DNA of 64,000 nucleotides from Parcubacteria group bacterium GW2011_GWA2_47_21 (GCA_001000545.1 LCOC01000005.1:10013-74012), one strand, 5' to 3'; positions 13,924 to 64,000 are shown, counted from the first letter of the stretch. A program made the numbers and translations. Notes: generated from the sequence alone by a model not told the origin.

Positions 13924-13992
13924 AAAATTTGCCCATCTTAACCGACGACTTCGCTCCGGTAGAAAAATATGTGACAAAATCAATGTTCTGAA
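13924..13992 (+). repeat. Direct repeat copy B (68-bp core of the junction repeat)
   Basis: AAATTTGCCCATCTTAACCGACGACTTCGCTCCGGTAGAAAAATATGTGACAAAATCAATGTTCTGAA identical to the core of copy A. Confidence 0.9.
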
Positions 13993-14047
13993 GAACAGAT
14001 GCGGATAATAATGGGATATGTCCTTAAAATTTTTCGTATTTATACGG

Positions 14048-14781: not shown

Positions 14782-14939
14782 TGGTGGCCAGAAAAAGTAA
14801 CGACAAATTTGCCCATCTTAACCGACGACTTCGCTCCGGTAGAAAAATATGCGACAAAATCAATGTTCTGAAAGACGGATACGAGAGATTTTTAATTCCC
14901 GAGTGATTTAACGGTTTCTCCTATCAAGTTCATAATCCC
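14782..14939 (+). repeat. Direct repeat copy C (~158 bp, 4 mismatches vs copy A), abutting first pilin-like gene
   Basis: Same 158-bp sequence as 12462-12620 with GTG->GCG and three substitutions in the distal part; its minus strand encodes the C-terminal tail (IMNLIGETVKSLGN*) of ORF 14892-15083. Confidence 0.9.
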
Positions 14940-15083
14940 AAACGCCGAGAACATTATGAACATTCCGATGATACCGAAGATAATCGCTAATCCGCCCTCT
15001 TTCCTCTTCGCCGCGTCATCACCTTTGGCTACATAACGAAAGACCCCCCAAATAAATACCAGAAAAGCCAGTGACAGAAGCAA
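14892..15083 (-). CDS. VirB2/TrbC-like small membrane protein paralog, N-terminally truncated (possible gene fragment)
   Basis: Two hydrophobic helices around loop VFRYVAKGDDAAKRKEGG; lacks signal peptide and overlaps 3' end of next paralog by 65 nt. Confidence 0.35.
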   Translation of the reverse strand: MLLSLAFLVFIWGVFRYVAKGDDAAKRKEGGLAIIFGIIGMFIMFSAFGIMNLIGETVKSLGN

Positions 15084-21890: not shown

Positions 21891-22414
21891 AGTTTTCTGG
21901 CGGTGAAGCCGTAGTGGTGAGCGCCGGCCAAGAAATTGGCTACGATTTCAAAACCGGATTTCTTAAAAATTTCCTTGGCCGATGCCGGAGGGACAACCAT
22001 ATTTGCCGTTGGCCCCAAATTGCCGAAGGACTCCGACCAATCAATAACAAACGCCCGGCCCCCTTTCTTCAAAATCCTCTTTACTTCGGACACGAGACCG
22101 GCTTTATTTTCCGCTTGAAACAAAACATTGGAGACAACGGCGGCGTCCAAGGAGTCGTCTTTGAGTTTTGTCCCGCCGATTTTTTCCGCGTCGCCCCAAA
22201 TAATTTCCAGATTATTGAGGTGCCCCTCCGCCGCCAAGCTCTTAAGCCGCGTGAGAAGATTCTCTTGCACATCAACGGCAAAAACCCGCCCGGAATCGCC
22301 GACGGCCTTCGCCAGAACCATTGAATACGCTCCGGAACCGGCGCCGATGTCGGCTACCTGCATGCCGGGTATTATGCCAAGCTGGTCAACGATGGATTGA
22401 GGGTTTAGGAACAT
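21887..22414 (-). CDS. Class I SAM-dependent methyltransferase (small, substrate unknown)
   Basis: Motif I VADIGAGSGAYS, motif post-I AVDVQ; 175 aa. Confidence 0.75.
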   Translation of the reverse strand: MFLNPQSIVDQLGIIPGMQVADIGAGSGAYSMVLAKAVGDSGRVFAVDVQENLLTRLKSLAAEGHLNNLEIIWGDAEKIGGTKLKDDSLDAAVVSNVLFQAENKAGLVSEVKRILKKGGRAFVIDWSESFGNLGPTANMVVPPASAKEIFKKSGFEIVANFLAGAHHYGFTARKL

Positions 22415-22450
22415 AGCTTCATAGCTTCATAGCTTCATAGCTTCATAGCT
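22415..22450 (-). repeat. Tandem 8-mer (ATGAAGCT on minus strand) x4.5 immediately upstream of the methyltransferase start codon, creating five in-register-shifted ATGs
   Basis: + strand AGCTTCAT x4 + AGCT directly 3' of CAT start (22412-22414); on the minus strand each unit reads ATG AAG CTA TGA (M K L stop) with TGA overlapping the next ATG. Confidence 0.9.
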
Positions 22451-22561
22451 AAAACAAATATGTCTTGAAACCAGTAATTATTTTCACTACCGCTACGATG
22501 ATGAAACTACCTTAAAAGTATACACTAAAATTATACACCAGTTATACACTGGCAAAGAACA

Positions 22562-22600
22562 CCGTGCCTGCCGGCGCGCAACGCGCGCCGGCAGGCACGG
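22562..22600. other. GC-rich perfect 18-bp-arm hairpin between gyrA 3' end and methyltransferase promoter region
   Basis: CCGTGCCTGCCGGCGCGC-aac-GCGCGCCGGCAGGCACGG; member of CCTGCC...GGCAGG palindrome family. Confidence 0.85.
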
Positions 22601-22608
22601 GAAACTAT

Positions 22609-22642
22609 GAAGCTAACGAAGCTAACGAAGCTAACGAAGCTA
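22609..22642. repeat. Tandem 9-mer (GAAGCTAAC) x3.5 abutting gyrA stop codon
   Basis: GAAGCTAACGAAGCTAACGAAGCTAACGAAGCTAAAT; + strand ORF 22607-22807 ([12 protein letters not shown]...) is just the translation of this repeat. Confidence 0.9.
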
Positions 22643-25096
22643 AATGGTAATAACCGATGCCAGCGAGTCCCCTTCTCTAAGTTTCATTATCCGAACCCCT
22701 TGGGTTTGCCGGCCGAGCGTTGGAATCTCTTTGAGAGCCACCCGAATCACTTGGCCTTTTTTGGAAATCGCCACCAATTCTGTTTCTTCATCGGTAACAA
22801 CCTTTGAGGTGATAAGCGAACCGGTCTTAGCCGTTACTTTGGCGGTCTTGATGCCCGAACCGCCTCGCTTTTGGATTTTGTATTCTTTGAGCTCGGAAAG
22901 CTTGCCGTAGCCATTCTCCGAAATGACAAGGAGCCGGGGGTTCGTCGCGGCCTTCCTCACGACATCGGCGCCGACGACAAAATCGCCCTTGCCGAGCCGC
23001 ACCGCCCGGACCCCGCCCGCGCCCCGCCCCATCACCCGAATATCGGACTCTTTGAAATGGATGGATTGACCTTTCCCCGTCGCCACCGCCGCTTCATCAC
23101 CCTTACCCACGAACGCGGCGTGCTTGAGCTCATCTCCCTGGTCTAAGCGGATGGCGATGATGCCGCTTCGCCTCACATCGTGGAAACCCTTTGAATCCAC
23201 TTTCTTGGCCACGCCGGCTTTAGTCACCATAAGTATGGCCGCTTCGGCTGCTTTGATTTCTTTAGGCATCGGCAAAACGGAAGTGACTTTTTCCTCGGCG
23301 GCCAGAGCCAGAAAATTCATAATGGACTTGCCTTTTGTTGCCCGCCGGCCTTCCGGAATCTCATACATTTTTATCTGATAGGCCTTGCCGCGGTCGGTGA
23401 AAAACAGAAGCTCGCTGTGAGTCGTGGTCGTAAGAAACATAGTCACAAAGTCCTCTTCTTTAGTGTCCAAATCAACCACCCCGACGCCCCCGCGGCGCTG
23501 TTTGCGGTACTCCTCCGGGTCGGTGCGCTTCACATAACCGCCCTTGGTAAGCACCAAAACGCTTTCTTCGTCGGCCACCAAATCCTCCATAGAGAAGCTC
23601 GCCGCCGCCGATTTGACGATTCTGGTCTTGCGCGGGTCGCCGTATTTCTCTTTGATTTCTTTGAATTCGTCTTTGATACTACCTAGAATTTTTTTCGGAT
23701 GAGCAAGGATGTCTTTGAGTTTGGCGATGAGCTCTTGGACACTCTTAAGCTCGTCCTCTATTTTCTTACGCTCCAAGCCCGCCAAGCGGGAAAGTTTCAT
23801 TTCCAAAATCGCCAGCGCCTGTCTTTCCGAAAACTTGAAGGACTTCATAAGGCCGGCTTTGGCTTCCTCCACGTCTTTAGATTTCTTTATTAACTTGATG
23901 ATTTCATCAATGTGGTCAAGGGCCTTCTTGAGGCCTAAGAGAATGTGCTCGCGGTCTTCCGCTTTGGCTAGGTCAAATTTCGTCCGTCGCTCTATCACCA
24001 CTTGGCGGTGAGAAACAAATTCTTCTAAAATGGATTTTAAGGAAAGGGTTTGAGGCACGCCGTTCACGAGCGCCACCATATTGAAATGGAAAGTGTCTTC
24101 CAGAGCGGTATGTTTGTAAAGAAAATTCAAAACGGTCTGGGGATGAGCGCCGTTCTTGAGGTCAATGACAATCCGAATATCGCGGGTGGACTCGTCGCGG
24201 AGCCCCTTAATGCCGTCCAATTTTTTCTCCCTGACCAAGTCGGCGATTTTCTCTATGAGGTCGGCTTTGTTGACGCGGTAAGGGATGGAGGTGATGACGA
24301 TTTGGAAAGCGCCGGCTTTCGTCTCAACAATTTCCGCTTCACCTCGGGCAACGACTCCGCCTTTCCCCGTGCTGTAAGCGTGGCGAATGTCATCCGCGCC
24401 AAAAATCACCCCGCCGGTCGGAAAATCGGGACCTTTGACGAATTTAAGCAAACCATCGGTGGTCATATCCGGGTCGTCTATTAGAGCGGACGCGGCATCC
24501 ACCACTTCGCCTAAGTTGTGAGTCGGAATGTTGGAAGCCATACCAACGGCGATGCCTAGCGTGCCGTTTAGAAGGAGTACCGGCACGGCGGCGGGCAAAA
24601 CTATCGGCTCTTTTTTGGTGCCGTCGTAATTGGGGCGAAAATCAACCGTGTCCTTCTCAATGTCCCGCAAAAGCTCGCCGGCGATTTTTGACATCTTGCA
24701 TTCGGTGTATCGGTACGCCGCCGCACTGTCGCCATCAATTGAACCCCAGTTGCCTTGGCCGATGACCAGTGGATATCTGATAGAAAAATCCTGAACCATT
24801 TTCACCATTGATTCATAGACGGCGGCGTCGCCGTGGGGATGATAACTGCCTAACACATCGCCGACCACCGTCGCCGATTTCTTAAATTTCGCCGAGGCCG
24901 TCAAACCCTTCTCGTGCATCACGTAAAGAATCCGCCGGTGGACCGGCTTTAAGCCGTCTCGCACATCAGGCAAAGCGCGGGCTGTTATCACCGACATGGC
25001 GTAATCCAAATACGCCTCTTTCATCTCCGTGCTGATATTTTGGAGTATCACGGCGCGAGCCACCGGCGCGCTTTTTGGTTCGGATTCTTTGGACAT
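22640..25096 (-). CDS. gyrA: DNA gyrase subunit A
   Basis: 818 aa; GyrA N-terminal blocks ([40 protein letters not shown], active-site Tyr region AAYRYTE) and C-terminal beta-pinwheel repeats. Confidence 0.95.
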
Positions 25097-28641: not shown

Positions 28642-28879
28642 AAAAAATTTAAAGTAGAAAAGTCAAAGCGTAAAATGACAAAACTACAATTGACCTAAAT
28701 TAGGATTTGAGAATTGTTTAGAATAATTAGGATAATCAGGTAAATGAGAAATTGATTTATCATTCTTAATTTTGCCTGACTCGCTCAATGTTCCCGCAGT
28801 CGGCCGAGTGAACGTTTGCATTCTACATTCATCTTGAGTATTGCGTCAACGGCGCAAAAGGTAATACAATGTCGGCAAT

Positions 28880-33016: not shown

Positions 33017-33326
33017 AAATCGCCCGGGCATATGTTTTTCAACGCGCGACAAAACACCCCCCCAGCCGGGCGTTTTTTGTGCTCGCCTTGCCGCTTGCCC
33101 TGCCGCTTGCCAACTCCCGTTGGCAAGCGGCAGGATTCCCAAAAAAGACGCTGGGGTCAAATTTTTAAGAAACATTTGCTTGACTTGTCAACTCTTCCTT
33201 TTTTGAGCGGGTTTGTGTAGTATGCGACACTATAAAGCGGAGCGGATTCAAAACGGCGCTTCTGGCAAAAGCTCTCAAACGGTTTTTCATTTTTCGTTTG
33301 GCTTTTTAAATTTTACATAAATCATT

Positions 33327-34463
33327 ATGCCTCAAGTAAAACCCGAAGTTGAAGCGTTTGCGCGCATTAAAGTCATCGGGGTCGGCGGCTCGGGCAAGAA
33401 CGCCGTCAATCATATGCTCGGCGCCAAAGTCAAAGGCGTGGAATTCATCGTGGTCAATACCGACGCCCAAGACCTCCACAACGCGCAGGCGAGGAAGAAA
33501 ATCCACATCGGGAAAAATCTCACTCACGGGCTGGGGGCCGGCATGAATCCCGAAGTCGGCCGCAAAGCGGTTGAAGAAAATAAAGAAGAAATCCAAGAAG
33601 CCATCAAGGGCGCCGATATGGTGTTCGTGGCGGGAGGACTCGGTGGCGGCACTTACACCGGCGCGGCGCCGATGATCGCAAAAACCGCCAAGGAACTCGG
33701 CGCGCTCACTGTCGCCATCGCCACTAAGCCGTTTTTCTTTGAAGGCCAGCAAAGAATGAGAATTGCCGAAAGCGGGCTGGAAGAGCTTCGCCACTCGGTT
33801 GACGCCATCGTGGTCATTCCCAACGACCGCTTATTGGGAGTGGTGACCAAAGAGACCACCGCCAAGAACGCTTTCGCTATGTGCGATGAAGTGCTTAAGC
33901 AGGCGGTGGAAGGCATTTCCGACCTGATTACCATCCCGGGCATCATCAATGTTGATTTCGCCGATGTTAAAGCGGTTTTGGAAAATGCCGGCTCGGCTTT
34001 AATGGGCATCGGCATCGCCTCCGGCGAAAAAAGAGCCGAGGAAGCGGCCCGAGCGGCCATTAATTCCCCGCTTTTGGAGGTTTCAATCAGCGGCGCCAAA
34101 GGAGTCCTCTTCTCCATTGCCGGCGGCGACGACCTCACTATGTTTGAAATCCAAGATGCCGCCAAAGTCATTACCGAATCCATTGACCCTGACGCCAAAG
34201 TTATTTTTGGCACGGTCCGCGACGACAAACTCAAGAAAGGCGAAGTGAAAATTACGGTCATCGCTTCCGGTTTCCCCGAGCCGTCCACTCCCAGGAAAAC
34301 CTTATTTATGGCCGATTCGGAAGAGAAAAAAGGGAAAATTTTCAACGCAATGATGGCGCCGACCGCGGCCTCGGCCAACGAAACTAAAACGGACGGCAAG
34401 ACACTGCCTGAAGATGAAGACGAGTGGAGCGCCGTGCCGGCATTTCTAAGGAGGAAAAAGTAG
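33327..34463 (+). CDS. ftsZ: Cell division protein FtsZ
   Basis: Tubulin signature GGLGGGTYTGAAPMIAKTAKELGALTVAIATKPFFFEG and IKVIGVGGSGKNAVNHM. Confidence 0.95.
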   Translation: MPQVKPEVEAFARIKVIGVGGSGKNAVNHMLGAKVKGVEFIVVNTDAQDLHNAQARKKIHIGKNLTHGLGAGMNPEVGRKAVEENKEEIQEAIKGADMVFVAGGLGGGTYTGAAPMIAKTAKELGALTVAIATKPFFFEGQQRMRIAESGLEELRHSVDAIVVIPNDRLLGVVTKETTAKNAFAMCDEVLKQAVEGISDLITIPGIINVDFADVKAVLENAGSALMGIGIASGEKRAEEAARAAINSPLLEVSISGAKGVLFSIAGGDDLTMFEIQDAAKVITESIDPDAKVIFGTVRDDKLKKGEVKITVIASGFPEPSTPRKTLFMADSEEKKGKIFNAMMAPTAASANETKTDGKTLPEDEDEWSAVPAFLRRKK

Positions 34464-39254: not shown

Positions 39255-39326
39255 TTTTGAAAATAGGTGCGAGCTTGGTACAATAGACACACCATAAGGA
39301 GATTAGGAGGAATTTTTCCTATTTCA

Positions 39327-39355
39327 CAATGGGCTTCCGCAATGGAAGCCCATTG
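39327..39355. repeat. Hairpin repeat element CAATGGGCTTCC-GCAAT-GGAAGCCCATTG, copy 1
   Basis: 31-bp identity (CACAATGGGCTTCCGCAATGGAAGCCCATTG) with 46290-46320. Confidence 0.9.
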
Positions 39356-46063: not shown

Positions 46064-46291
46064 ATGCCTAATTACTTTCTCTACGCTCGCAAAAGCACCG
46101 ATGTTGAAGACAAGCAAGTCCGGTCTATTGACGACCAACTTACTGTCTTGCGAGCGTTGGCGAAAGAGCAAAATTTCTCCATCACCCGAGAGTTCATAAA
46201 GAGGCAATCCGCGAAAATGCCCGGACACCCCGTCTTTGATGAAATGCTCGCCCTGATTGAGAAAGGCGAAGCGCGCGGCGGTCCACAAACA
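46064..46291 (+). pseudogene. Serine recombinase (resolvase/invertase-type) N-terminal catalytic-domain fragment, interrupted after ~75 aa by the hairpin repeat
   Basis: MPNYFLYARKSTDVEDKQVRSIDDQLTVLRALAKEQNFSITREFIKRQSAKMPGHPVFDEMLALIEKGEA matches Y-x-R-x-S-T...Q...L serine recombinase N-terminus; similarity ends where palindrome 46290-46320 begins. Confidence 0.6.
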
Positions 46292-46320
46292 CAATGGGCT
46301 TCCGCAATGGAAGCCCATTG
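46292..46320. repeat. Hairpin repeat element, copy 2
   Basis: Identical 31-bp core to 39325-39355. Confidence 0.9.
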
Positions 46321-46700: not shown

Positions 46701-46794
46701 CATAGAACGATAGCAATTTTTTGAATTTTTTTCAAAAAATGCTATTGTATGTCTGCCGTTTTTAGTTTTTCGCTTTTCGTTTTTAATTTACCGC

Positions 46795-46866
46795 GGCCCT
46801 ATCGTCTAACGGTTAGGACACAGGCTTTTCAAGCCTGGAATCGGGGTTCGATTCCCCGTGGGGTCA
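46795..46866 (+). tRNA. tRNA-Glu (anticodon UUC)
   Basis: Manual fold: D-arm GUCU-AACGGUUA-GGAC, anticodon stem CAGGC/GCCUG loop UUUUCAA, T-arm CGGGG-UUCGAUU-CCCCG; acceptor has two G-U pairs. Confidence 0.65.
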
Positions 46867-47896: not shown

Positions 47897-49282
47897 ATGG
47901 TGATTTTAGGCGTTGAAACGAGTTGTGACGAAACGGCTCTGGCTTTAATAGAAGCCGAGGACGATTCGGTGCGGGTCCTGGCAGACATCACGCATTCGCA
48001 AGCGGCGCTTCACGCAAAATACGGTGGCGTGTTTCCTAATCTTGCCAAACGGGAACACAGCCGAAACCTGATTCCATTGCTGAAAAATCTCTTAGCGGAA
48101 TCAGGTTTCGGAAATCCCAAATCACAAGCGCCCCGCCTGCCAATCGGCGGGCAGGCAAATTCCCTGCCTGCGCCGAATCGGCTTCGGCAGGCAGGCAAAC
48201 AAATCCAAAGTGTTAAATCCAAAACACTAAACGCTAAACGCTCTACGCTAAACGCTATCTTCGAGCGGGAGCCGGAGTTGTGGGAACAATTTGAGAGGTT
48301 TATCCCGACAATTGAAAAGCCGCCGATTGATGCGATTGCAGTAACCTACGGACCCGGGCTTGAGCCGGCGCTGTGGGTCGGCATTAATTTCGCGAAAGCG
48401 CTCGGAGTGATTTGGAACATCCCGGTGATTCCAACGAATCATATGGAAGGGCACATCGTTTCCGCGCTGTTGCGCAGAAACGCAAACTCTAAATCCGAAA
48501 CTCTAAATTCCCTGCCTGCGCCGAATCGGCTTCGGCAGGCAGGCAAACAAATCCTAAATTCAAAATCTCAAATACTAAATGCTACACGCTATACACTACA
48601 CGCCATACGCTTTCCTGCTATTGCTTTACTCATCTCCGGCGGGCATACAGAGTTGGTGCTGGTTAAAAAGCTGGGACAATACGAAATTATTGGCGAGACG
48701 AAAGATGATGCGGTCGGCGAGGCGTTTGATAAAGTGGCGCGCATCCTTGGACTTCCCTATCCTGGAGGACCGGAAATCTCCGCGCTGGCAGAGCGGGCGC
48801 GGCAAGCAAAACAAGGTTCGACCTTGGAGTCGGGAAAAAGGTCGAACCTTGTTTTGCCAAGACCCATGCTCCATTCGGGCGACTACCACTTTTCTTTTTC
48901 CGGTTTAAAAACTGCGGTGCTGTACACGGTAAAAAAGATTCCGAGGGTCACGGCCGCAATCAAACAAGCGCTCGCGAAAGAGTTTGAAGATTCCGTCACG
49001 GAAGTGCTCATTTCCAAAACAACCAAAGCCATCAAAGAATACGAAGCAAAGACCTTAATCATCGCCGGCGGGGTAATCGCCAACAAACACATCCGCTCCG
49101 CCTTTGAGGAACTTCGCGCATCTGCCTTCCCTTCCCTTGAGCTCCTCATCCCCGAAATCCCCCATTCCACCGACAACGCACTCATGATCGCCGTTGCGGG
49201 GTATCTCAACCTAAAATCCGGCCGCCGACCAGCAAAGGGAAACGAGTTTATAATCATCGCCTCCGGCCGCGTTCGACTGTAA
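47897..49282 (+). CDS. tsaD: tRNA N6-adenosine threonylcarbamoyltransferase TsaD (Kae1/Gcp family) carrying in-frame repeat insertions
   Basis: ILGVETSCDETA, NHMEGH, LISGGHTELVLV, DDAVGEAFDKVARILGLPYPGGP, FSFSGLKT conserved blocks; interrupted by two copies of a 49-bp palindromic repeat and AT-rich simple repeats (peptide NSLPAPNRLRQAGKQI occurs twice). Confidence 0.85.
   Translation: MVILGVETSCDETALALIEAEDDSVRVLADITHSQAALHAKYGGVFPNLAKREHSRNLIPLLKNLLAESGFGNPKSQAPRLPIGGQANSLPAPNRLRQAGKQIQSVKSKTLNAKRSTLNAIFEREPELWEQFERFIPTIEKPPIDAIAVTYGPGLEPALWVGINFAKALGVIWNIPVIPTNHMEGHIVSALLRRNANSKSETLNSLPAPNRLRQAGKQILNSKSQILNATRYTLHAIRFPAIALLISGGHTELVLVKKLGQYEIIGETKDDAVGEAFDKVARILGLPYPGGPEISALAERARQAKQGSTLESGKRSNLVLPRPMLHSGDYHFSFSGLKTAVLYTVKKIPRVTAAIKQALAKEFEDSVTEVLISKTTKAIKEYEAKTLIIAGGVIANKHIRSAFEELRASAFPSLELLIPEIPHSTDNALMIAVAGYLNLKSGRRPAKGNEFIIIASGRVRL
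48158..48206. repeat. Palindromic repeat copy 1 inside tsaD (AATTCCCTGCCTGCGCCGAATCGGCTTCGGCAGGCAGGCAAACAAATCC)
   Basis: Identical 49-mer at 48506-48554; nested palindrome CCTGCCTGC...GCAGGCAGG. Confidence 0.9.
48506..48554. repeat. Palindromic repeat copy 2 inside tsaD
   Basis: Same 49-mer as 48158-48206. Confidence 0.9.
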
Positions 49283-49422
49283 GCTGAGTAGAAACCACCT
49301 CAAGAATAAAAACAAACGGTTGAGATGTAGACATCAGATGTCTACAGCGTGTTAAAGTTCCTAAAATGGCAGAAAGTGGAAACCTTTTGGGGAAAAACCT
49401 TATTTCTGATACTATTTCTTGA

Positions 49423-51597
49423 ATGGCACTACCGGAAAAATTTTTAAAACCCTACAACCACACCGAGACGGAGGCGCGGATTTACAAACTCTGGGAAGAG
49501 GGCGGCTTTTTCCAGCCCGAGGCTGGTCGGCCTTGGGCCGATAACCCTGACTCTCCCTCTACCAACCACAAACTATCAACTAACAACTTCTGCATCATTA
49601 TGCCTCCCCCGAACGCCAACGGCCACCTTCACGCCGGCCACGCGCTTTTTATCACCCTTGAAGACATTATGACCCGCTATAAACGAATGCGGGGTTTTAA
49701 GACACTCTGGCTTCCCGGCGCCGACCACGCCGGTTTTGAGACCCAAATCGTCTACGAGAAAAAACTGGAAAAGGAGGGGCGCTCTCGTTTCAAAATGGCG
49801 CCTAAAGAGCTTTTTGACGAAATAATGGCTTTTACGCTAGAAAATAAAAAGTTCATGGAAGCGGAAGTCCGAGCGCTCGGCGCTTCATGCGACTGGACGA
49901 GAGAACGTTTTACGCTTGACCCCGATATCATCAAAAAAGTCCAACAAACATTCAAGAAAATGTATGACGACGGCCTTATCTATCGCGGACCGAGAATCGT
50001 CAACTGGTGTTCCAAACATCTGACTTCCCTTTCCGATGTGGAAACGGAAAACCGCGAAGTGAAAGACAAATTTTATTATTTCCAATACGGCCCGTTCGTT
50101 ATCGGCACATCAAGGCCGGAAACCAAGTTTGGCGACAAATATGTGGTCATGCACCCCAAGGACAAACGCTATGACAAATACAAAGACGGGGAGAAAATGG
50201 AACTGGAATGGATTAACGGAAAAATCACCGCCACCGTCATTAAAGACGAAGCGGTTGATATGGAATTCGGCACCGGCGTCATGACCATCACCCCGTGGCA
50301 CGACGCGGCGGACTTTGAAATCGCCAAGCGCCACAACCTTGACCAAGAACAAATCATTGATTGGCGCGGGAAACTTCTGCCCATCGCCGGAGAATTTGCG
50401 GGAATGAAAATCGCCGAAGCCCGCCCCAAAATCGTGGAAAAACTCAAAGCCAAAGGCCTCTTGGTCAAAGTGGAAGAAAATTACGTCCATAATGTGCCAA
50501 TCTGCTATAAATGCGAAACGCCAATTGAGCCGCAAATTATGCCGCAATGGTTCGTCAAAATGGCGCCCTTAGCGAAGCTCGCCACGGACGCGGTGGAAGC
50601 GGGAAAAATAAAATTTATGCCCGACAACTACCGAAAAATTTTCCTCTACTGGATGAAAAACGCGCTGGACTGGAACATTTCCCGCCAAATCGTCTGGGGT
50701 ATTCCGATTCCGGCAAAAATCTGCGACAACTGCGGCGAAGGAACGCCGGACTTGGACAACGAGGTGAGAGAATGTCCGAAGTGCAAAGGCGTTATCCGCG
50801 CCGATACTGACACCTTTGACACTTGGTTCTCTTCCGGCCAGTGGCCGCTTCTCACTTTGAATTTCCCAGACGGCGAGGACTTCAAGGCCTTCTATCCGAC
50901 CGATGTGATGGAAACCGGCTCCGACCTAATTTTCAAGTGGGTGCCGAGAATGGTGATTTTCGGCCTATACCTAGCGGACGAGGTGCCCTTTAGGACCGTC
51001 TACCTCCACGGTTTGGTCAACGACGCTAAGGGGCAAAAGATGTCCAAAAGCAAGGGCAACATTATCAATCCTTTAGAACTCACGGCGAAATACGGCACTG
51101 ACGCTTTGCGCATCGCTCTCATTATCGGCAATACGCCGGGTACCGCTCTGTCACTTTCGGAGAATCGCATCAGGGGTTACAAACATTTTGCCAATAAACT
51201 CTGGAACATTACCCGTTTTGCTCTGGAAAATATTCCGGAAGACATCCTTGACAAAGAACCAAAGCTCTCCGAGACGGACGAAATCCACCTTAAAAATTTT
51301 GAGGCCTTAACGCGCGAAGTGACCGAGGATATGGAACAGTTTCGTTTTTATCTCGCCGCCGAAAAACTCTATCACTATGTCTGGCACGAATTTGCTGATA
51401 AAATAATTGAGGAGAAAAAAAATAATCTAAACGGCGACGATACTCCGGCGAAAAAATCAGCCGAACGACTCCTGCAACATATCCTGAAAAATTCGCTCGT
51501 CATGCTCCACCCCTTCATTCCTTTCGTTACTGAAGAAATTTGGTCGCACCTGAAGAAAAAGGAGATGCTTATGGTAGAAAGATGGCCTGTTGAATAG
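49423..51597 (+). CDS. valS: Valine--tRNA ligase (short form, no long C-terminal coiled coil)
   Basis: Class I HIGH variant PPPNANGHLHAGHA, KMSKSKGN, ValRS-like N-terminus YNHTETEARIYKLWEEGGFF. Confidence 0.75.
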   Translation: MALPEKFLKPYNHTETEARIYKLWEEGGFFQPEAGRPWADNPDSPSTNHKLSTNNFCIIMPPPNANGHLHAGHALFITLEDIMTRYKRMRGFKTLWLPGADHAGFETQIVYEKKLEKEGRSRFKMAPKELFDEIMAFTLENKKFMEAEVRALGASCDWTRERFTLDPDIIKKVQQTFKKMYDDGLIYRGPRIVNWCSKHLTSLSDVETENREVKDKFYYFQYGPFVIGTSRPETKFGDKYVVMHPKDKRYDKYKDGEKMELEWINGKITATVIKDEAVDMEFGTGVMTITPWHDAADFEIAKRHNLDQEQIIDWRGKLLPIAGEFAGMKIAEARPKIVEKLKAKGLLVKVEENYVHNVPICYKCETPIEPQIMPQWFVKMAPLAKLATDAVEAGKIKFMPDNYRKIFLYWMKNALDWNISRQIVWGIPIPAKICDNCGEGTPDLDNEVRECPKCKGVIRADTDTFDTWFSSGQWPLLTLNFPDGEDFKAFYPTDVMETGSDLIFKWVPRMVIFGLYLADEVPFRTVYLHGLVNDAKGQKMSKSKGNIINPLELTAKYGTDALRIALIIGNTPGTALSLSENRIRGYKHFANKLWNITRFALENIPEDILDKEPKLSETDEIHLKNFEALTREVTEDMEQFRFYLAAEKLYHYVWHEFADKIIEEKKNNLNGDDTPAKKSAERLLQHILKNSLVMLHPFIPFVTEEIWSHLKKKEMLMVERWPVE

Positions 51598-51600
51598 ATT

Positions 51601-51730
51601 AAAGAAAAAAATTCCAAATAACAAATCCTAAACAAGATTAAAATCTGAATGTTCAAAATTACAAAAGTTTAGAAGTTTTGAATTTAGAATTTGTTTGTTA
51701 TTTGGAATTTGTGATTTGTAATTTTAACAT
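51601..51730. repeat. AT-rich simple-repeat/inverted-repeat element (AAATCC/GGATTT family) downstream of valS
   Basis: ATTCCAAATAACAAATCCTAAAC ... GTTTGTTATTTGGAATTTG inverted arms plus TTTAGAA/TTGAATTTAGAATTTG units. Confidence 0.7.
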
Positions 51731-51781
51731 TGGCGCTTTTTTAGAAATTAGGTCAATTAGAGCAATTAGAAATTTATTCTG

Positions 51782-52507
51782 ATGTCTTTCCCAACCATTC
51801 TTTATGCCATTCTCGGCGGCCTTCTTCCCGCCCTCCTTTGGCTTTGGTTCTGGCGGCATGAAGACGGGCGCCATCCGGAGCCGAGACGGCTCATCGCTAT
51901 CGCTTTTCTCGCCGGCGTCCTGGCGGTGCCCTTTGCCATACCGCTGGAAAAATTCGTCTTGGAAGAAATCCTTGGTGGGCAAAATGTTGAACTCGCGGCG
52001 AAAGCATTGCCACTCGCCGCCCTCTTAGCCGTTCTCCTTTGGGCCATTATAGAAGAGCTCCTTAAATTCATCGCCGCCTATTTATCCGTCCTTACGAGAC
52101 CTTCGGTAGACGAACCGATTGACCCGGTGATTTATATGATAAGCGCGGGACTCGGCTTTGCCGCCGCCGAAAATATTATGTTTTTAATTGAACCGATTCT
52201 GGCTGGCGAGACCACGGTAAGCTTTATGACGGGAAATCTCCGATTTATGGGCGCCACGCTTCTCCACATCACCGCTTCGGCTATAATAGGAGCGGCTTTA
52301 GGATTTGGCTTCTATAAACAAAAGAAAATCCGCCGGCGGATTGCCGGCTTGGGAGTTATCCTCGCCATAACCTTGCATACGGTTTTCAACTTTCTTATAA
52401 TTATTGAAACCCCTGTCGGCATATTCGCGTCTTTCCTCTTGGTCTGGCTCGCCGTCATCGCCCTCATCGTCGCGTTGGAAAAAGTAAAACGAGTCCATCC
52501 GGCGTAA
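51782..52507 (+). CDS. PrsW-family intramembrane metalloprotease
   Basis: PrsW motifs EELLKF, FAAAEN, HTVFN across polytopic membrane protein. Confidence 0.7.
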   Translation: MSFPTILYAILGGLLPALLWLWFWRHEDGRHPEPRRLIAIAFLAGVLAVPFAIPLEKFVLEEILGGQNVELAAKALPLAALLAVLLWAIIEELLKFIAAYLSVLTRPSVDEPIDPVIYMISAGLGFAAAENIMFLIEPILAGETTVSFMTGNLRFMGATLLHITASAIIGAALGFGFYKQKKIRRRIAGLGVILAITLHTVFNFLIIIETPVGIFASFLLVWLAVIALIVALEKVKRVHPA

Positions 52508-52583
52508 TCTTTAAAAAGTCGGCCGAAGAATCCACGCCCTCAAACTGTTTAATAAAAAATTATTAGATTTAAAAATATAAACT

Positions 52584-53039
52584 ATGGCAAAAGACAAGCG
52601 GTCATTTTTTGAACGGCTAACCGGCGCCGGCGCCGAGGAGCTTGAAGATGAAAAAGAATTATCGGTTTCCCAAAATCTATCCCCTCTGTCCGATTCGGAC
52701 GACGAGGCCGGCGAGCTGGCCGTTGATGTGTATCAGACGGCCGACAATATCATCATCAAAGCGATGGTCGCGGGCATTAAGCCGGACGATTTGGACATCG
52801 CCATCACGCGCGATATGGTAACCATCAAAGGAACGCGCGAATCCGACCGCGAGGCCAACGATGAAAATTTCTTTTTCAAAGAGCTTTACTGGGGCTCGTT
52901 CTCCCGCACGATTCTCCTGCCCCAAGAAGTGGAGGTGGAGGAAGCCGAGGCCTCGGAGAAAAACGGCTTGCTAACCATTAAATTGCCGAAAGTAGACAAG
53001 GGACGCCAAACCAAACTCAAGGTCCGCTCGTCAAGCTAA
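52584..53039 (+). CDS. Hsp20/alpha-crystallin family small heat-shock protein
   Basis: ACD pattern AVDVYQTADNIIIKAMVAGIKPDDLDIAI...NGLLTIKLPK. Confidence 0.8.
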   Translation: MAKDKRSFFERLTGAGAEELEDEKELSVSQNLSPLSDSDDEAGELAVDVYQTADNIIIKAMVAGIKPDDLDIAITRDMVTIKGTRESDREANDENFFFKELYWGSFSRTILLPQEVEVEEAEASEKNGLLTIKLPKVDKGRQTKLKVRSSS

Positions 53040-53045
53040 TTCATC

Positions 53046-53074
53046 AAAAAATCACGCTAGCGCGTGATTTTTTG
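53046..53074 (+). terminator. Rho-independent terminator after hsp20
   Basis: AATCACGC-tagc-GCGTGATT followed by TTTTT. Confidence 0.75.
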
Positions 53075-53081
53075 ATAACGG

Positions 53082-53154
53082 TGCCGAGACCCAGGTTTGC
53101 ACTGGGGACCCTTCGCTCTTCAGGCGAATGCTCTACTAACTGAGCTATCTCGGC
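53082..53154 (-). tRNA. tRNA-Phe (anticodon GAA)
   Basis: Reverse complement GCCGAGAUAGCUCAGUUAGUAGAGCAUUCGCCUGAAGAGCGAAGGGUCCCCAGUGCAAACCUGGGUCUCGGCA; anticodon loop CUGAAGA; unusual T-loop UGCAAAC. Confidence 0.75.
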
Positions 53155-53225
53155 GTGTATTATTTAACTCTGCCAAACTATTAGTTTAATTTAACGCCTT
53201 TACTGAATACAATCAAGAGACGGGG

Positions 53226-53492
53226 TTATTCCGCTAACTGTTTTAAGGAATCGCCGACATTCCGCACGCTTTCCACACTTTGCCTGACTGTCCCTATGGA
53301 GCCGGTAATCGCTTCCAAATACGGCTGAATGAGCCAATACGCGCCGAAAGCAGTGCCGAGAATGAGAACCCAGTAAGTTATCTTAATCGCTCTCCCCCAT
53401 TTGTGGCTCCTGTAAAATTTTTTGATAATCTCATTGTTCTCTGCCGCCAGCCGATGGGTTTCCTCCAGTAATTCTTTTTCTTCTTCGTTCAT
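53226..53492 (-). CDS. Small hypothetical membrane protein
   Basis: One TM helix (ITYWVLILGTAFGAYWLI); no motif recognised. Confidence 0.35.
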   Translation of the reverse strand: MNEEEKELLEETHRLAAENNEIIKKFYRSHKWGRAIKITYWVLILGTAFGAYWLIQPYLEAITGSIGTVRQSVESVRNVGDSLKQLAE

Positions 53493-53555
53493 AAAATTAA
53501 AATAAAAATGTTAGCTGTAAATCCCAAAAAGAACTTGGAACTATTTTATCACAAA

Positions 53556-53627
53556 TGCCACCGACAGGAATCGAACCTGTATCTAGACGTTAGGAGTGTC
53601 TTGTTCTATCCATTGAACTACGGCGGC
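53556..53627 (-). tRNA. tRNA-Arg (anticodon CCU)
   Basis: Reverse complement GCCGCCGUAGUUCAAUGGAUAGAACAAGACACUCCUAACGUCUAGAUACAGGUUCGAUUCCUGUCGGUGGCA; anticodon loop CUCCUAA. Confidence 0.7.
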
Positions 53628-53736
53628 AACGGATTAAATCTACGCTCTACAACTTACCACCGACGACATCCAAAAACAAACCGGGCTAATCTGCTATTTT
53701 AGCGAACTTGAGTTGTCAGTGGTTAATTGTAAGCGG

Positions 53737-53973
53737 TCAGTTAATTCCTAATGCTGCCGCGATTTTGGGTTGGTTGTAACCCACAATAAGTTCATCGTCT
53801 ATTGTAATCACCGGCACGCCCATCTGGCCGCTTTTGTCCATCATTTCTCTGCGTTTCTCCAAATCACTGGCTACATTATGTTCGGTATAAGAAATATTGT
53901 GGGCGTTAAAGAGGTCCTTGGCGGCGTTGCAATAAACACAGGTTGGGGTTGAATAGATGACAACTTTTTTCAT
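53737..53973 (-). CDS. Glutaredoxin-like/NrdH-like redoxin
   Basis: 78 aa, VVIYSTPTCVYCNAAK CxxC thioredoxin-fold start, GVPVITIDD. Confidence 0.75.
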   Translation of the reverse strand: MKKVVIYSTPTCVYCNAAKDLFNAHNISYTEHNVASDLEKRREMMDKSGQMGVPVITIDDELIVGYNQPKIAAALGIN

Positions 53974-54177
53974 TTTTTTCTCAAGTTAAACGGATAAGGA
54001 AAGTCATTATATCAACCGAAGCCGTCTTTGCGCAAAAAATTCAATCGTTAACCAAAGAAAAAAACCATCCGTCAATATGTTCATCCGAGCGAACTCATTA
54101 TTTCCTAGCGAGAATCGGCTACTACATAGCCAGATGGTTTTCGTTATCGCCGCGAGCGAATATAGGTCCCCACGGCA

Positions 54178-54220
54178 GACCTGCCTGCCCTGTCTGCGTC
54201 TGGACGCACAGGCGGGCAGG
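54178..54220. repeat. GC-rich imperfect palindrome of CCTGCC...GGCAGG family
   Basis: GACCTGCCTGCCCTGTCTGCGTCTGGACGCACAGGCGGGCAGG. Confidence 0.8.
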
Positions 54221-54291
54221 AACCACGCGGTCTTGACCTAATTTGCGTTACTCGCTTAACTCGCAAAATACATACGCCTCGCTCATTATTT

Positions 54292-54362
54292 TGCGGGTAG
54301 CGAGAATCGAACTCGCGTCTCAACCTTGGGAAGGTCGCATTCTGCCACTAAACCATACCCGC
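54292..54362 (-). tRNA. tRNA-Gly (anticodon CCC)
   Basis: Reverse complement GCGGGUAUGGUUUAGUGGCAGAAUGCGACCUUCCCAAGGUUGAGACGCGAGUUCGAUUCUCGCUACCCGCA; anticodon loop UUCCCAA; D-stem with two G-U pairs. Confidence 0.65.
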
Positions 54363-54369
54363 TTAAAAA

Positions 54370-54750
54370 TCAGATTCCTAAAATTTTTTTAAATTTATCC
54401 CATAAATTTTCACTTTCTCCTTTGCCATATAAAGACCCGCCATCATCGTCGTTCACAATAACCACAGTTCGCTCGCCCTCTTTCTCCATTCCGAATTTCC
54501 CTCTGATTTCCTCTTCAACGCCGGCGGGCGTTTGAAGCCGGCCGAGCGCCGCTTGAATAAAATCCCTTCTCGCCGATAGCGCGTCGCGCCTAGAAGCTAC
54601 GCCTTGGAGAAGCGCTTTGCTCTCCGCGCTCTTTTGATAAGCGCTATACGCTGTTTGGACCAAAAAAACGGCGACGATAATCGCGAGAATTATGAATACT
54701 GGCGAGTGGCTTATTTTCTTAAAATTGTTTTTCTTTTCAAATAAACGCAT
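54370..54750 (-). CDS. Hypothetical membrane-anchored protein (single N-terminal TM, possibly FtsB/DivIC-like)
   Basis: N-terminal helix VFIILAIIVAVFLV then charged/coiled region; weak resemblance only. Confidence 0.3.
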   Translation of the reverse strand: MRLFEKKNNFKKISHSPVFIILAIIVAVFLVQTAYSAYQKSAESKALLQGVASRRDALSARRDFIQAALGRLQTPAGVEEEIRGKFGMEKEGERTVVIVNDDDGGSLYGKGESENLWDKFKKILGI

Positions 54751-54997
54751 AAATGTTGCAAGTTACACGGTATATAGTACATAATATTCTCATGTTTTTC
54801 CAAAATAAACATCGCAAAAAAATAAATGCCATCTGGGCGGTGCTTTGCGTGCTCATAATCATCAGCATGATACTTCTTTACACGCCGATATTGTTTTACT
54901 AAAATATATACTTGAGACAGGACTCCTTATTCTAAATAACAAGTAAATACTATTCGTAGTTATTGGTAGATTGGTATCATTCGTATATTGGTATTTT

Positions 54998-56890
54998 TTA
55001 TTGTCTCATCATCTTCACAAACACCTCCTCCGGAATATTGACCTTGCCTCGCTCTTTGAGCCGTTTCTTGCCTTCCTTTTGTTTCTCCCACAGTTTTCTT
55101 TTTCGCGTGATATCGCCGCCGTATAAATAGCCGGTAACATCTTTTCGGAGCGCTGAAAGGGTGCGGGAAGAAATAATGCGGCCCAAGGCCTTGGCTTGAA
55201 TTTTTGTTGCAAACATTTGGCGAGGCAGAATTTTGTGAAGTTTTTCAACGCTGGCTTCGGCTTCGGTTTCAAGGCGTCGCCGCGATACGATGCGGGCAAA
55301 AGCCGGCACCGATTCCCCAGCCACCAGAATTTCCATCTTTACCACATCGGCCATTTCTTCTCCTTGGATTTTATAAGAAAGGGAGCCGTAACCGGAGGTG
55401 GCACTTTTGAGCTCGTCAAAAAAATTCCGCATCAGTTCCCTAAGAGGCATTCTGGCTTCCACCTCGGTCCGGTTGTCGCTTAAATTTTCCGTGACGCCAA
55501 CCACCGCTTCGTGTTCGTAAAAAAGCTGCATCACATTGCCCAGATAATCCGCCGGCGCGATTATTTGGACGGCGGCCCACGGCTCCCGAACTGACACCAC
55601 CTCGCCGTGGTCGGGAAAATGAATCGGCGAGTAAGCGATTTTCTGCCGGCCGGCGCGGTCGGTTACCTCGTAACTGATTGAGGGCGTGGTAACAATTATT
55701 TTCAGACCAAATTCCCGCCGAAGCCGTTCGGTAATAATTTCCAAGTGAAGCATCCCGAGAAAACCGACCCGAAATCCCCGCCCCAAGACGCCGGAGGACT
55801 CTTCCTCATAAGCGAACGATGAATCGGAAAGCCGAAGGCGCGCCAAGGCCTGACGCAAAGCATTAAAGTCATCCTGACTTTCCGGATAGACGGACGCCCA
55901 GACCACCGGAGCGGGTTTGCCGTAACCGGGGAGCGCTAAGGCCGGGTTTTTATCGGAAGTAACCGTGTCGCCAACCGTCGCAATACCCGGCTCTTTTATG
56001 CCCGTTATAATGTAGCCGATTTCGCCAGCCGAGAGGGTTTCTGTCGGCATTTCTTTTGGCGAGAAAACCCCAAGATCAATCGGGATAAAGCGGGCTTTGC
56101 CGGCAATGAGGCGAAGCGCGTCTCTCTTATTCACTTCGCCCGCCATTACCCTAAGATAAAGAATTACGCCGGTGTGATTAGAGTATTGGAAATCAAAAAT
56201 GAGGGCCTGGAAGTTTTCTCCTGTTTGTTTCGGCGGCGGCACTTTCCCAATGATTTCTTCAAGAAGTTCAGGAACGCCTTGGCCGGTTCTACCCGATACT
56301 TCCATTATCTCGCCTTCCGCTACGTGGAGAAGTTTTGCCATATCGGCCTTAACATCGACCACTCTTGCCAAAGGCGAATCAATTTTATTTACCGCCGGAA
56401 TAATGGCTAGGCCCTGTTCCCTGGCCATCTGAAGCACTGAAAGCGTCTGTGCCTGCACACCCTGCGTCGCGTCTACCAGTAAAATCGCGCCCTCCACGGC
56501 CTTAAGCGCGCGTGACACCTCATACGAGAAATCAATGTGACCCGGCGTGTCTATCAAATTCAGAATGAATTCTGAACCTGCAAACCCTAAACTCGAAACC
56601 CTAATCTCTAAACTTTTTGGGAAATTTGGATTTGAATATTGGGATTTGTTTAGAATTTTGGATTTAGAACTTAAATTTTCCGCATGATTCCCTTTGTAAA
56701 TCATGCGGACGGGTTTCATCTTTATGGTGATTCCCCTTTCCCGTTCGAGCTCCATGGAATCAAGCACTTGGTCTTGCATCTTTCTTTTTTCAATCGTGCC
56801 AGTCAGCTCCAAAAAACGGTCCGCAAGCGTGGACTTGCCGTGGTCTATATGCGCTATGACGCAAAAGTTGCGGATGTTTTCCAGACCCAT
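54998..56890 (-). CDS. lepA: Translation elongation factor 4 (LepA) with ~40-aa low-complexity insertion in G domain
   Basis: MGLENIRNFCVIAHIDHGKSTLADR G1 motif, DTPGH G3 motif, LepA C-terminal domain; insertion AENLSSKSKILNKSQYSNPNFPKSLEIRVSSLGFAGSEF encoded by AT-rich simple repeat at 56570-56680. Confidence 0.9.
   Translation of the reverse strand: MGLENIRNFCVIAHIDHGKSTLADRFLELTGTIEKRKMQDQVLDSMELERERGITIKMKPVRMIYKGNHAENLSSKSKILNKSQYSNPNFPKSLEIRVSSLGFAGSEFILNLIDTPGHIDFSYEVSRALKAVEGAILLVDATQGVQAQTLSVLQMAREQGLAIIPAVNKIDSPLARVVDVKADMAKLLHVAEGEIMEVSGRTGQGVPELLEEIIGKVPPPKQTGENFQALIFDFQYSNHTGVILYLRVMAGEVNKRDALRLIAGKARFIPIDLGVFSPKEMPTETLSAGEIGYIITGIKEPGIATVGDTVTSDKNPALALPGYGKPAPVVWASVYPESQDDFNALRQALARLRLSDSSFAYEEESSGVLGRGFRVGFLGMLHLEIITERLRREFGLKIIVTTPSISYEVTDRAGRQKIAYSPIHFPDHGEVVSVREPWAAVQIIAPADYLGNVMQLFYEHEAVVGVTENLSDNRTEVEARMPLRELMRNFFDELKSATSGYGSLSYKIQGEEMADVVKMEILVAGESVPAFARIVSRRRLETEAEASVEKLHKILPRQMFATKIQAKALGRIISSRTLSALRKDVTGYLYGGDITRKRKLWEKQKEGKKRLKERGKVNIPEEVFVKMMRQ
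56570..56680. repeat. AT-rich AAACCCTAA / TTGGATTT simple-repeat element lying in-frame inside lepA
   Basis: AAACCCTAAACTCGAAACCCTAATCTCTAAAC...GGAAATTTGGATTTGAATATTGGGATTTGTTTAGAATTTTGGATTTAGAAC. Confidence 0.8.
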
Positions 56891-63362: not shown

Positions 63363-63390
63363 AAAACCCCGCTTTTTTAAGCGGGGTTTT
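63363..63390. terminator. Bidirectional rho-independent terminator (A-tract/hairpin/T-tract)
   Basis: AAAACCCCGC-ttttttaa-GCGGGGTTTT. Confidence 0.8.
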
Positions 63391-63429
63391 CATTTTGAAT
63401 TTGTAATTTTAAATTTTGCGTTTTTAATT

Positions 63430-64000
63430 TTACACTATCTCGCACACCCCCGCCACACAGGCCAGTTCTTTCTTGGGGTCCGTTTCGTTTTGCTTTTCGT
63501 AAGTCAAAATCTTTGAGTAATCAATGTGGGTCAAACGCTTGGCCAGCTCGTTGTAGCGCTTCTCGTCAATCGTTTCGTAGGGCGCCAGCTGATAAACATG
63601 ATTGTCGCGCGGCAAAAACGAGAGTCCGCCGATGTAATCCCAATTTTTATAAAGCCAGTCAGCCGCGGCAATCCACTCGTCTTCTCCGATTGAAACCGTA
63701 ACGGACGGATTGTGTTCGGTATAATTTTGTTTGACCGACTTCCAATGTTCAAGCTGTTCAATCGCCGACAAATCATCGCGAAAAACTTTCGTGCCAGCCG
63801 GCGCTTTGACCGGAAATTCTAAAACATAAGTCGTGGCATTTTCCGGCGACTGGCCGACTTCCGGATAATAAAGCACGCCCTGGTCTTTAAGCATCTTGAA
63901 AAGAGCGTCGGTGGCGGCAATTCTGATTCGTCTGATGTAATAGGCGGAGTGCCTCGGATGCATGCCGGAAGAACAGTCAACCATTTGGGAAAGCGTGCCC
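63430..64000 (-). CDS. C-terminal part of a larger protein running off window end; possibly class II (B12-dependent) ribonucleotide reductase-like C-terminus
   Basis: Minus-strand frame open to 64000; C-terminal tail ...LACVAGVCEIV with C-x4-C pair reminiscent of RNR C-terminal redox cysteines; weak assignment. Confidence 0.3.
   Translation of the reverse strand, partial: GTLSQMVDCSSGMHPRHSAYYIRRIRIAATDALFKMLKDQGVLYYPEVGQSPENATTYVLEFPVKAPAGTKVFRDDLSAIEQLEHWKSVKQNYTEHNPSVTVSIGEDEWIAAADWLYKNWDYIGGLSFLPRDNHVYQLAPYETIDEKRYNELAKRLTHIDYSKILTYEKQNETDPKKELACVAGVCEIV

Follow-up and report, generated by a model that had tools for sequence, protein, structure and literature searches.

The window analysed here, a 64,000-nt stretch of the genome of Parcubacteria bacterium GW2011_GWA2_47_21 (all counts given for this genome refer to these 64 kb), carries AT-rich AAATCC/GGATTT-type tracts inside two essential genes, tsaD and lepA (EF4), and in the spacer downstream of valS. 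Examination of these tracts revealed that they are degenerate tandem arrays of 7-nt units and not merely AT-rich sequence, that they are read in frame in both genes, and that edges of the inserts fold back on the neighbouring host codons. We suggest, at about even confidence, that they are heptamer arrays and hairpins which were made and are turned over locally by replication errors, and not by a transposase. A first-pass annotation of the window had reported similar low-complexity repeats at 48225-48265 and 48480-48610 (tsaD), 56570-56680 (lepA) and 51601-51730 (after valS), and had read them as short repeats that colonised the genome and are tolerated inside essential proteins. All four were found at these positions, and the observation is confirmed, while the interpretation is partly supported.

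Repeats were called with Tandem Repeats Finder and with an autocorrelation scan compared with block shuffles; a plain scan for AT-richness was also tried as a detector and was insufficiently specific. Tandem Repeats Finder gave period-7 arrays at 48222-48257 (AAACGCT), 48581-48611, 51668-51724, 56582-56613 and 63392-63432, and the autocorrelation scan gave 7 period-7 and 10 period-14 tracts, compared with 0.4-0.5 in block shuffles. The units run head to tail, as in heptanucleotide simple sequence repeats (SSRs). Those of tsaD are in direct orientation around a GC-rich palindrome, and those of lepA and of the spacer after valS form inverted arrays. Relatives also carry period-7 arrays with lineage-specific units, and their excess, only approximately 2-3-fold when set against other periods not divisible by 3, is far weaker than that in the window. 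Stretches common to different loci of the window amount to just 25-30 nt at 84-86% identity, in addition to a 102-nt pair (86% identity) within tsaD.

An excess of heptameric SSRs is known from bacteria, and at a given locus such repeats differ from one close relative to the next, for which polymerase slippage is a possible cause (PMC4692102). The tracts resemble the short tandemly repeated repetitive (STRR) sequences of cyanobacteria, the GGGAATC repeats of Xanthomonas and the GGGGAYT repeats of Nostoc in having tandem 7-nt units, sometimes in inverted pairs, that vary at a fixed intergenic locus (PMC4692102). However, those repeats are intergenic and G-rich, whereas the repeats of the window are rich in AT, have little G on the sense strand, and occur in addition inside essential genes, which read through them in frame. 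Length and sequence vary between close relatives at fixed loci here as well, namely in the valS-prsW spacer (the window and the L084 and L086 genomes) and in the LepA and TsaD loops, while no variation of the repeat regions within the population was observed across the compared assemblies. Short-read assembly is prone to errors in low-complexity and palindromic sequence, which would be the ground for regarding the tracts as an assembly or chimera artefact. The repeat regions are, however, identical in every covering contig assembled independently, from up to five samples and with different assemblers, and dozens of other genomes have inserts of a comparable kind. The identical assemblies exclude an artefact for practical purposes, leaving it a negligible probability, and also indicate that there is no length polymorphism in that population, a check that the first-pass annotation had proposed and that came out negative.

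The lepA insert is the clearest case. When aligned to the solved Thermus thermophilus EF4, LepA of the window shows a clean addition of ~36 residues at position 73, between the switch-I strand (RGITIK..VRMIY) and G3 (DTPGH); the first-pass annotation had given ~40 residues between G1 and G3 without a frame break, so that its placement and frame were right and its size was close. In AlphaFold models, which were built on orthologue alignments and have confident cores, the predicted local distance difference test (pLDDT) value falls below 50 (about 30) at residues 68-104, between the strands of residues 60-65 and 106-113. At the DNA level the centre of the insert is an inverted repeat with an arm duplex of -18.1 kcal/mol, a value reached by 3 of 300 shuffles. 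We compared 80 GTDB loci of LepA orthologues. In 57 of them the segment has its baseline length of 28-34 residues (32 in most) and is free of an insert, including the closest orthologue (78% identity, 594 aa; P0122/L087), while the 23 loci with at least 5 extra residues carry them always in the β2-β3 loop and are scattered over a rough neighbour-joining tree. The lepA gene is intact in all 80 loci. No in-frame stop was found over 18 LepA inserts, whereas each of the five remaining frames has 15-38, and across the 80 lepA and 24 tsaD loci every insert is a multiple of 3 nt in length and stop-free in the host frame. The open host frames and intact genes indicate that the inserts are translated and filtered for translatability, and the absence of in-frame stops together with the predicted disorder of the loops bears out the claim that the repeats are tolerated inside essential proteins. 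The 'empty' loop YTLHATSYTLNL of L087 (lepA 7282-9066) is itself a heptamer array (CTACACC CTACACG CTACGTC CTACACC) and shares the unit CTAYACG with the tsaD stretch encoding RYTLHA.

The edges of the inserts are formed by fold-back hairpins. In lepA, TCCGCATGATT lies 9 nt upstream of its reverse complement AATCATGCGGA (hairpin A, Table 1), and the end of the insert mirrors the host codons that follow (hairpin C), in longer versions of 13-21 bp in L006, L008, L016, L027, L081 and L082. The layout of three hairpins (flank, central heptamer, flank) recurs in other insert-bearing lepA genes and matches the codons of each genome. The Arg codons CGC, CGA and AGG in hairpin A are mirrored as GCG (Ala), TCG (Ser) and CCT (Pro), respectively; L053 mirrors its own ATGGCTTGG, L006 mirrors AATCTG and L008 mirrors AACTTG. 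Hairpin A has 8 positions, and hairpin C has 5, at which two or more Watson-Crick pair types occur. Perfect hairpins of at least 8 bp were found in 10 of the 23 insert-bearing lepA genes and in 0 of the 57 insert-free ones, and complementarity of at least 8 nt to the own flank was found in 6/20 inserts on the left and 8/20 on the right, compared with 0.5-1.25% in shuffles and 5-11% with the flanks of other genomes. In the minimal case, L017, the insert consists of just a 12-bp fold-back and adds 6 aa.

The hairpin at the left edge of tsaD insert 2 covaries in the same manner, with TCTTTTCTGCGC/GCGCAGAAAAGA in L084 and TCTTCTCGGCGC/GCGCCGAGAAGA in L086, and is also present in L003, L026 and L073. 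In the window, L084 and L086, respectively, TCC, TCT and TCG stand opposite AGA, AGA and CGA, and GTT, TTT and TTC stand opposite AAC, AAA and GAA. These three have one common hairpin centre, whereas that of L073 is shifted by 2 nt, and the hairpin is limited to orthologues with larger inserts, being absent where the loops are short. Over the lepA and tsaD inserts the edge stems measure 10-21 bp and the loops 2-9 nt, and in 1.1 Mb of open reading frame (ORF) cores from the window and relatives we counted 62 perfect hairpins compared with 5 in shuffles. Fold-back centres that differ between lineages, together with the minimal L017 insert, fit recurrent events. The insert ends of lepA and tsaD are not complementary to each other, that is, there are no terminal inverted repeats, and no direct target-site duplications were found at the inserts examined; since each end is instead complementary to its own host flank, the duplication is inverted and not direct.

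Read from the sequence, such reverse-complement copies of local host codons are the signature of template switching. The correction of quasipalindromes in E. coli is said to have been the subject of work by Ripley and by Lovett. It has been described that template switching creates and maintains perfect hairpins, forming the reverse-complement stem in one step and restoring its pairing in later events (PMC8794818), and the edge hairpins resemble such products in their perfect stem, short loop, adjacent reverse complement and apparent compensatory changes (PMC8794818). Descriptions of the process concern RNA genes and hot spots of mutation, and not recurrent in-frame loop insertions in essential protein genes.

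With their pairing to the 'exon' sequence on either side, the insert ends also recall intron-exon pairings and the take-off hairpins of bypassed segments, and the inserts could be intervening sequences that are absent from the mature protein, through removal from the mRNA or through ribosome bypass as in T4 gene 60 or the mitochondrial 'byps'. This is highly improbable, because the host frame stays open across the inserts and stops abound in the other frames, because they are far below the size of any self-splicing intron, and because no intron family was matched in an Rfam scan of the window, which returned only six tRNAs, and no intein domain among the Pfam matches, which were host domains only. 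The inserts do resemble the intervening sequences of 23S/16S rRNA, inteins and homing endonuclease insertions in their sporadic occurrence at fixed permissive sites, their long stems and an optional ORF (in the nuclease-bearing LepA described below), but they lack a splicing domain (Pfam) and an intron RNA (Rfam), and the insert stays in the protein.

TsaD of the window shows three additions. In the alignment to PDB structures it matches solved TsaD in three blocks (aa 3-70, 142-194 and 237-442), and the additional sequence comprises aa 71-141, 195-236 and about 300-315, the last of these adding ~13 residues to what is present in PDB TsaD. Inserts 1 and 2 have the 102-nt stretch in common at an offset of 348 nt, which places the copies in register with the reading frame. 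The palindrome of insert 3 belongs to a CAAGGTTCGACC family (perfect or near-perfect, 20 bp; QGSTL...RSNL) that also occurs in the LepA loop of L074 (10197-10240). One unit of the tsaD array reads CTCTACG, where CTAAACG would have given an in-frame TAA.

Functional lineage-specific loops, for example interaction surfaces under selection on the protein with incidental DNA repetitiveness, would account for part of this picture. Every Parcubacteria TsaD examined, those named being from Candidatus Taylorbacteria or Parcubacteria, has extra residues at identical sites, the reading frames stay open, and two parts of the additions are conserved and predicted to be structured: aa 108-141 (EREPEL... 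helices, pLDDT 80-89) and the strand RYTLHAIRF of insert 2 (conserved as RYTLHA). The extra sequence is therefore not all filler. However, the repeat-bearing parts are hypervariable and predicted to be disordered: pLDDT is below 50 at aa 77-107, 199-227 and 307-315, the length and sequence of the extra residues are lineage-specific, and fillers elsewhere, such as IPNSQFLI, ITNYEL and ESRIMNH, are low-complexity translations of 7-nt arrays. In addition, the closest LepA orthologue and the majority of LepA relatives lack the insert, and the edge residues are set by complementary host codons and not by a conserved peptide motif. Based on these observations, we regard selection for functional loops as a quite improbable explanation of the repeats. 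The ortholog alignments suggested by the first-pass annotation thus gave repeat segments that are not conserved lineage-specific insertions, given the empty LepA loci and TsaD fillers that all differ; for tsaD this holds for the repeat-bearing parts, and not for aa 108-141 and RYTLHA.

The tsaD gene is also a mosaic, put together by recombination from segments that resemble L084 and segments that resemble L086, as compared with L084 9001-10296 and L086 447-1769. Positions 47987-48250 are 85-96% identical to L084, and most of 48607-49130 is 80-92% identical to L086, with 53% around insert 3 (48787-48866). The genome of the window and those of L084 and L086 co-occur in one aquifer metagenome. 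This mosaic indicates that recombination, too, moves fillers.

The same kind of material fills spacers. The first-pass annotation had called the tract after valS intergenic and organised as an inverted repeat, and it indeed lies between the valS stop codon and the next gene, with an arm duplex of -29.4 kcal/mol that none of 300 shuffles reached. Three syntenic genomes, those of the window, L084 and L086, have a long hairpin in the valS-prsW spacer built from unrelated heptamers (AAATCC-type, GTAGAAG/CTACTTT and AATTTTC/GAAAATT). Strongly stable structures (z ≤ -3) were found 3' of lepA in 18 of the 80 loci, and several of them are a GC-rich core stem lengthened by complementary heptamer arrays. 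Comparison of the two spacers reveals that position and architecture are conserved while sequence is not, and such hairpins, located where genes end, probably act as terminators or other 3'-end structures or lengthen them. Two other intergenic tracts are listed in Table 1. Tracts related to that at 63381-63442 are the one after valS and those at 46740-46800 and 33279-33334. T-rich GTTTTTA-type heptamers at 46757-46790, 33281-33314 and 63384-63431 are mutually related; the first is directly 5' of tRNA-Glu and the second is upstream of a gene at 33327, and such tracts may be promoter/UP-like elements or terminator tails.

We propose that the tracts would arise as follows. Template switching would first copy, as the reverse complement, sequence that is adjacent or close by, giving edge fold-backs and inverted arrays, and polymerase slippage would then expand the 7-nt units. 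Homologous recombination would shuffle the products among co-occurring relatives. Within genes, the survivors would be those in permissive surface loops that keep the frame and are free of stops, presumably as disordered loops without a required function, three in TsaD and one at the β2-β3 turn of LepA. In spacers, for instance after valS, the same material would fold into long hairpins at the 3' ends of genes. The lepA and tsaD loops and the valS-prsW spacer are clade-wide hot spots with unrelated fillers, which counts against 'colonisation' by transposition. What stands of that claim is that similar short repeats occur in two essential genes and a spacer; a transposing element is not apparent. 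The inserts do not fit a classic miniature inverted-repeat transposable element (MITE), having neither terminal inverted repeats, direct target duplications nor a cross-genome consensus. Likewise, a scan limited to 10 larger, unexplained ORFs of the window (type III restriction-modification, NYN, Fic, HepT, UDG and radical SAM proteins) found no transposase, including the REP-associated tyrosine type (RAYT; REP, repetitive extragenic palindromic).

GC-rich palindromes, which the first-pass annotation had also mentioned, accompany the repeats. They are nested in tsaD inserts 1 and 2 and missing from the closest orthologues, P0001 and P0002. The doublet of insert 1 is formed by two different palindromes in tandem. 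L084 differs at 1 of ~66 nt across the surrounding AT-rich array, but where the window has the 63-nt palindrome block, it reads GATTCCG. The window contains further, related CCTGCC...GGCAGG palindromes at 7119, 22562, 33099 and 54178, and single large metagenome contigs hold multiple palindrome copies; as in REP and REPIN sequences, these are short GC-rich imperfect palindromes in many dispersed copies. In Nostoc, Elhai et al. in 2008 reportedly described short GC-rich palindromes inside tandem heptamer repeats that are absent from the orthologous sites of relatives. The tsaD palindrome behaves like these small dispersed repeats of Nostoc, but it belongs to another phylum and is nested in translated coding sequence. 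The intergenic region 22412-22643 has a GC palindrome with an 18-bp stem (CCGTGCCTGCCGGCGCGC...) between CATAGCTT x5 and GAAGCTAAC x4, and a palindrome related to it at 7119-7148 has a similar GGAAACTAT...GCTAACG tail after it. On the minus strand, 54085-54292 is a GC-rich structured stretch 3' of tRNA-Gly with a CCTGCC...GGCAGG palindrome and a fold z-score of only -2.3; Rfam gave no match for 54020-54300.

Relatives point to a possible alternative origin. One subclade carries a complete PF13366 (GxxExxY, PD-(D/E)XK) domain in frame in exactly the same LepA loop (110.8 bits, profile positions 2-117 of 117; L081 3001-5298, L082 3001-5289, P0153, P0169, P0172, P0175, P0184, P0193, P0198, P0203 and P0205). 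The nuclease ORF is bracketed by inverted arrays of ACGCAGA/TCTGCGT, whose duplexes reach -44 to -65 kcal/mol compared with -26 to -36 kcal/mol in shuffles. The same domain also splits dihydrofolate reductase (DHFR) in frame (L155 559-1437, P0250), with similar low-complexity termini, TQIDAD... and ...SASYQRSSA. From these sequences, one may tentatively picture the inserts as non-autonomous hairpin cassettes similar to MITEs or Rickettsia palindromic elements (RPEs), with an autonomous form that would carry the putative nuclease ORF between inverted arrays; the nuclease would cut targets in permissive loops, repair would leave the flank fold-backs, and derivatives without the ORF would be the heptamer hairpins. 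The patchiness of LepA inserts on the tree, the likeness of tracts across loci, the dispersed GC palindromes and the fact that some nuclease pairs are closer than their hosts (82-83% versus 68-69%) are in line with this, as is the in-frame insertion into ORFs with presence and absence among orthologues. However, nuclease identity overall tracks that of the host (74% versus 76%, r=0.68), fitting vertical descent, and the flank-inverted hairpins at the DHFR insert are not clear. Furthermore, the heptamers of short inserts differ in every genome and are unrelated to the units flanking the nuclease, target-site duplications were not found, and the 10 scanned ORFs of the window contain no such nuclease. 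Since nuclease divergence mostly tracks the host and the DHFR case lacks clear hairpins, we consider the cassette possible but not the best reading. It is unlikely, in our estimate, that Parcubacteria harbour undescribed in-frame 'loop cassettes', hairpin-bounded and mobile, that target the permissive loops of LepA, DHFR and possibly TsaD, in which the autonomous form, with its GxxExxY nuclease carried by the host protein as an additional domain, would be an intein-less homing element, the heptamer fillers its decayed derivatives without the ORF and the flank fold-backs a signature of integration or repair.

Several observations nevertheless weigh against an origin by local replication errors. 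First, the edges of the LepA nuclease inserts are themselves inverted copies of the host flank, 10-21 bp long (in L082, 10 bp at the left edge and ~21 bp at the right one), and this common boundary architecture hints at an enzyme-driven process. Second, hairpins persist with compensatory changes in the vertically inherited nuclease insert of L081 and L082, which could reflect selection for structure rather than neutral correction. Third, a flank hairpin is missing in 13 of the 23 insert-bearing lepA genes. Fourth, the four tracts are alike, as the first-pass annotation had noticed: only 0-2 of 200 composition-preserving shuffles reach the observed score, and the 9-mer AACAAATCC has 4 of its 5 occurrences inside the tracts, with all four regions represented. 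Fifth, an identical 39-nt palindrome TTCCCTGCCTGCGCCGAATCGGCTTCGGCAGGCAGGCAA stands at equivalent points of tsaD inserts 1 and 2, which needs ectopic copying or real mobility, and the same palindrome stems occur in 61 metagenome stretches on contigs of 34-69% GC, often flanked by heptamer repeats. As regards the putative terminator role of the spacer hairpins, a scan for canonical terminator and promoter consensus at the valS-downstream element gave no match and was uninformative.

The closest known parallel in coding sequence is that of the RPEs, which form palindromic families of ~150 bp with a conserved consensus and encoded peptide, in frame in housekeeping genes (Ogata et al. 2000, as summarised in PMC10969869). 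The inserts of the window are similar in being in-frame, translated and fold-tolerated palindromic inserts in housekeeping genes of a reduced-genome bacterium (PMC10969869). Unlike RPEs, they have no cross-genome consensus, their heptamer fillers are lineage-specific, their edges are inverted host codons, and the same loop is hit clade-wide. A literature search found no published heptanucleotide repeats or in-frame palindromic inserts in Parcubacteria or the candidate phyla radiation (CPR). If local replication errors are indeed the source, essential proteins of ultra-small bacteria would gain and lose disordered loops through a DNA-copying error recognisable from sequence, and not through transposition; this would offer a concrete route for the origin of new protein segments and of RNA and DNA hairpins, and would account for many of the odd low-complexity 'insertions' in CPR proteins. 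Annotators would then be warned against reading such inserts as functional motifs or as misassemblies, and TsaD and EF4 would offer naturally occurring sites that tolerate insertions. If the link to the in-frame nuclease at the LepA site were causal, it would represent a new kind of selfish element.

Table 1. Genes, inserts, hairpins and repeat tracts of the window.
Feature	Position	Strand	Description
AAATCC/GGATTT-like intergenic tract	28690..28745	.	likeness to tsaD insert-2 and lepA tracts reached by 0/200 shuffles
tsaD CDS	47897..49282	+	Pfam TsaD; 461 aa versus about 335 aa in canonical TsaD; three inserts
tsaD insert 1, variable part (aa 71-122)	48107..48262	+	AAATCC-type units, two GC-rich palindromes, (CTAAACG)n array at 48222-48257
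Two adjacent GC-rich palindromes in tsaD insert 1	48133..48198	+	CCCGCCTGCCAATCGGCGGGCAGG, then TTCCCTGCCTGCGCCGAATCGGCTTCGGCAGGCAGGCAA at 48160-48198; encode RLPIGGQANSLPAPNRLRQAG
Hairpin at left edge of tsaD insert 2	48457..48482	+	CGTTTCCGCGC-tgtt-GCGCAGAAACG; VSAL codons mirrored as LRRN
tsaD insert 2 (aa 195-236)	48479..48604	+	AAACTCT/AAATCCG units, followed by the GC palindrome (48508-48546) and by NAAATNC and CTAYACG heptamers (48542-48611)
tsaD insert 3	48806..48857	+	palindrome with 20-bp stem, GCAAAACAAGGTTCGACC...GGTCGAACCTTGTTTTGC, in frame as QGSTLESGKRSNL
valS CDS	49423-51597	+	
Inverted repeat filling the valS-prsW spacer	51598..51735	.	long, AT-rich; AAATCC-type heptamer arrays
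lepA (EF4) CDS	54998..56890	-	630 aa; 100% identity with P0121 (Parcubacteria bacterium GW2011_GWA2_47_21)
Hairpin C of lepA	56559..56576	-	insert end TTCAGAAT (read GSE), inverted copy of host I-L-N codons ATTCTGAA
lepA insert (aa ~69-104)	56577..56684	-	in frame; tip of G-domain β2-β3 hairpin; centre is an imperfect inverted repeat of heptamer units
Hairpin A of lepA	56679..56709	-	host V-R-M-I codons TCCGCATGATT and perfect inverted copy AATCATGCGGA (read NHAE) opening the insert
Period-7/period-21 T-rich intergenic tract	63381..63442	.	adjoins terminator-like hairpin at 63363-63390

A low-complexity stretch at the N-terminus of valS (~49530-49595) was considered as a further insert and rejected, as it aligns to T. 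thermophilus ValRS with only 2 extra residues. Elsewhere in the window, identical 31-nt palindromes (CACAATGGGCTTCCGCAATGGAAGCCCATTG) at 39325-39355 and 46290-46320 bracket the type III restriction-modification/NYN block beside tRNA-Ser. L089 and L090 differ around this neighbourhood, one of them having a resolvase ORF, and the bracketed block is possibly a mobile island. A 71-nt perfect inverted repeat (36960-37030/39184-39254), with arms 2.15 kb apart, encloses UDG-family and B12-binding radical SAM genes, and direct repeats of 84-161 nt with 93-99% identity lie around Fic/HepT-like toxin genes at 12462-12622, 13920-14003 and 14782-14942.

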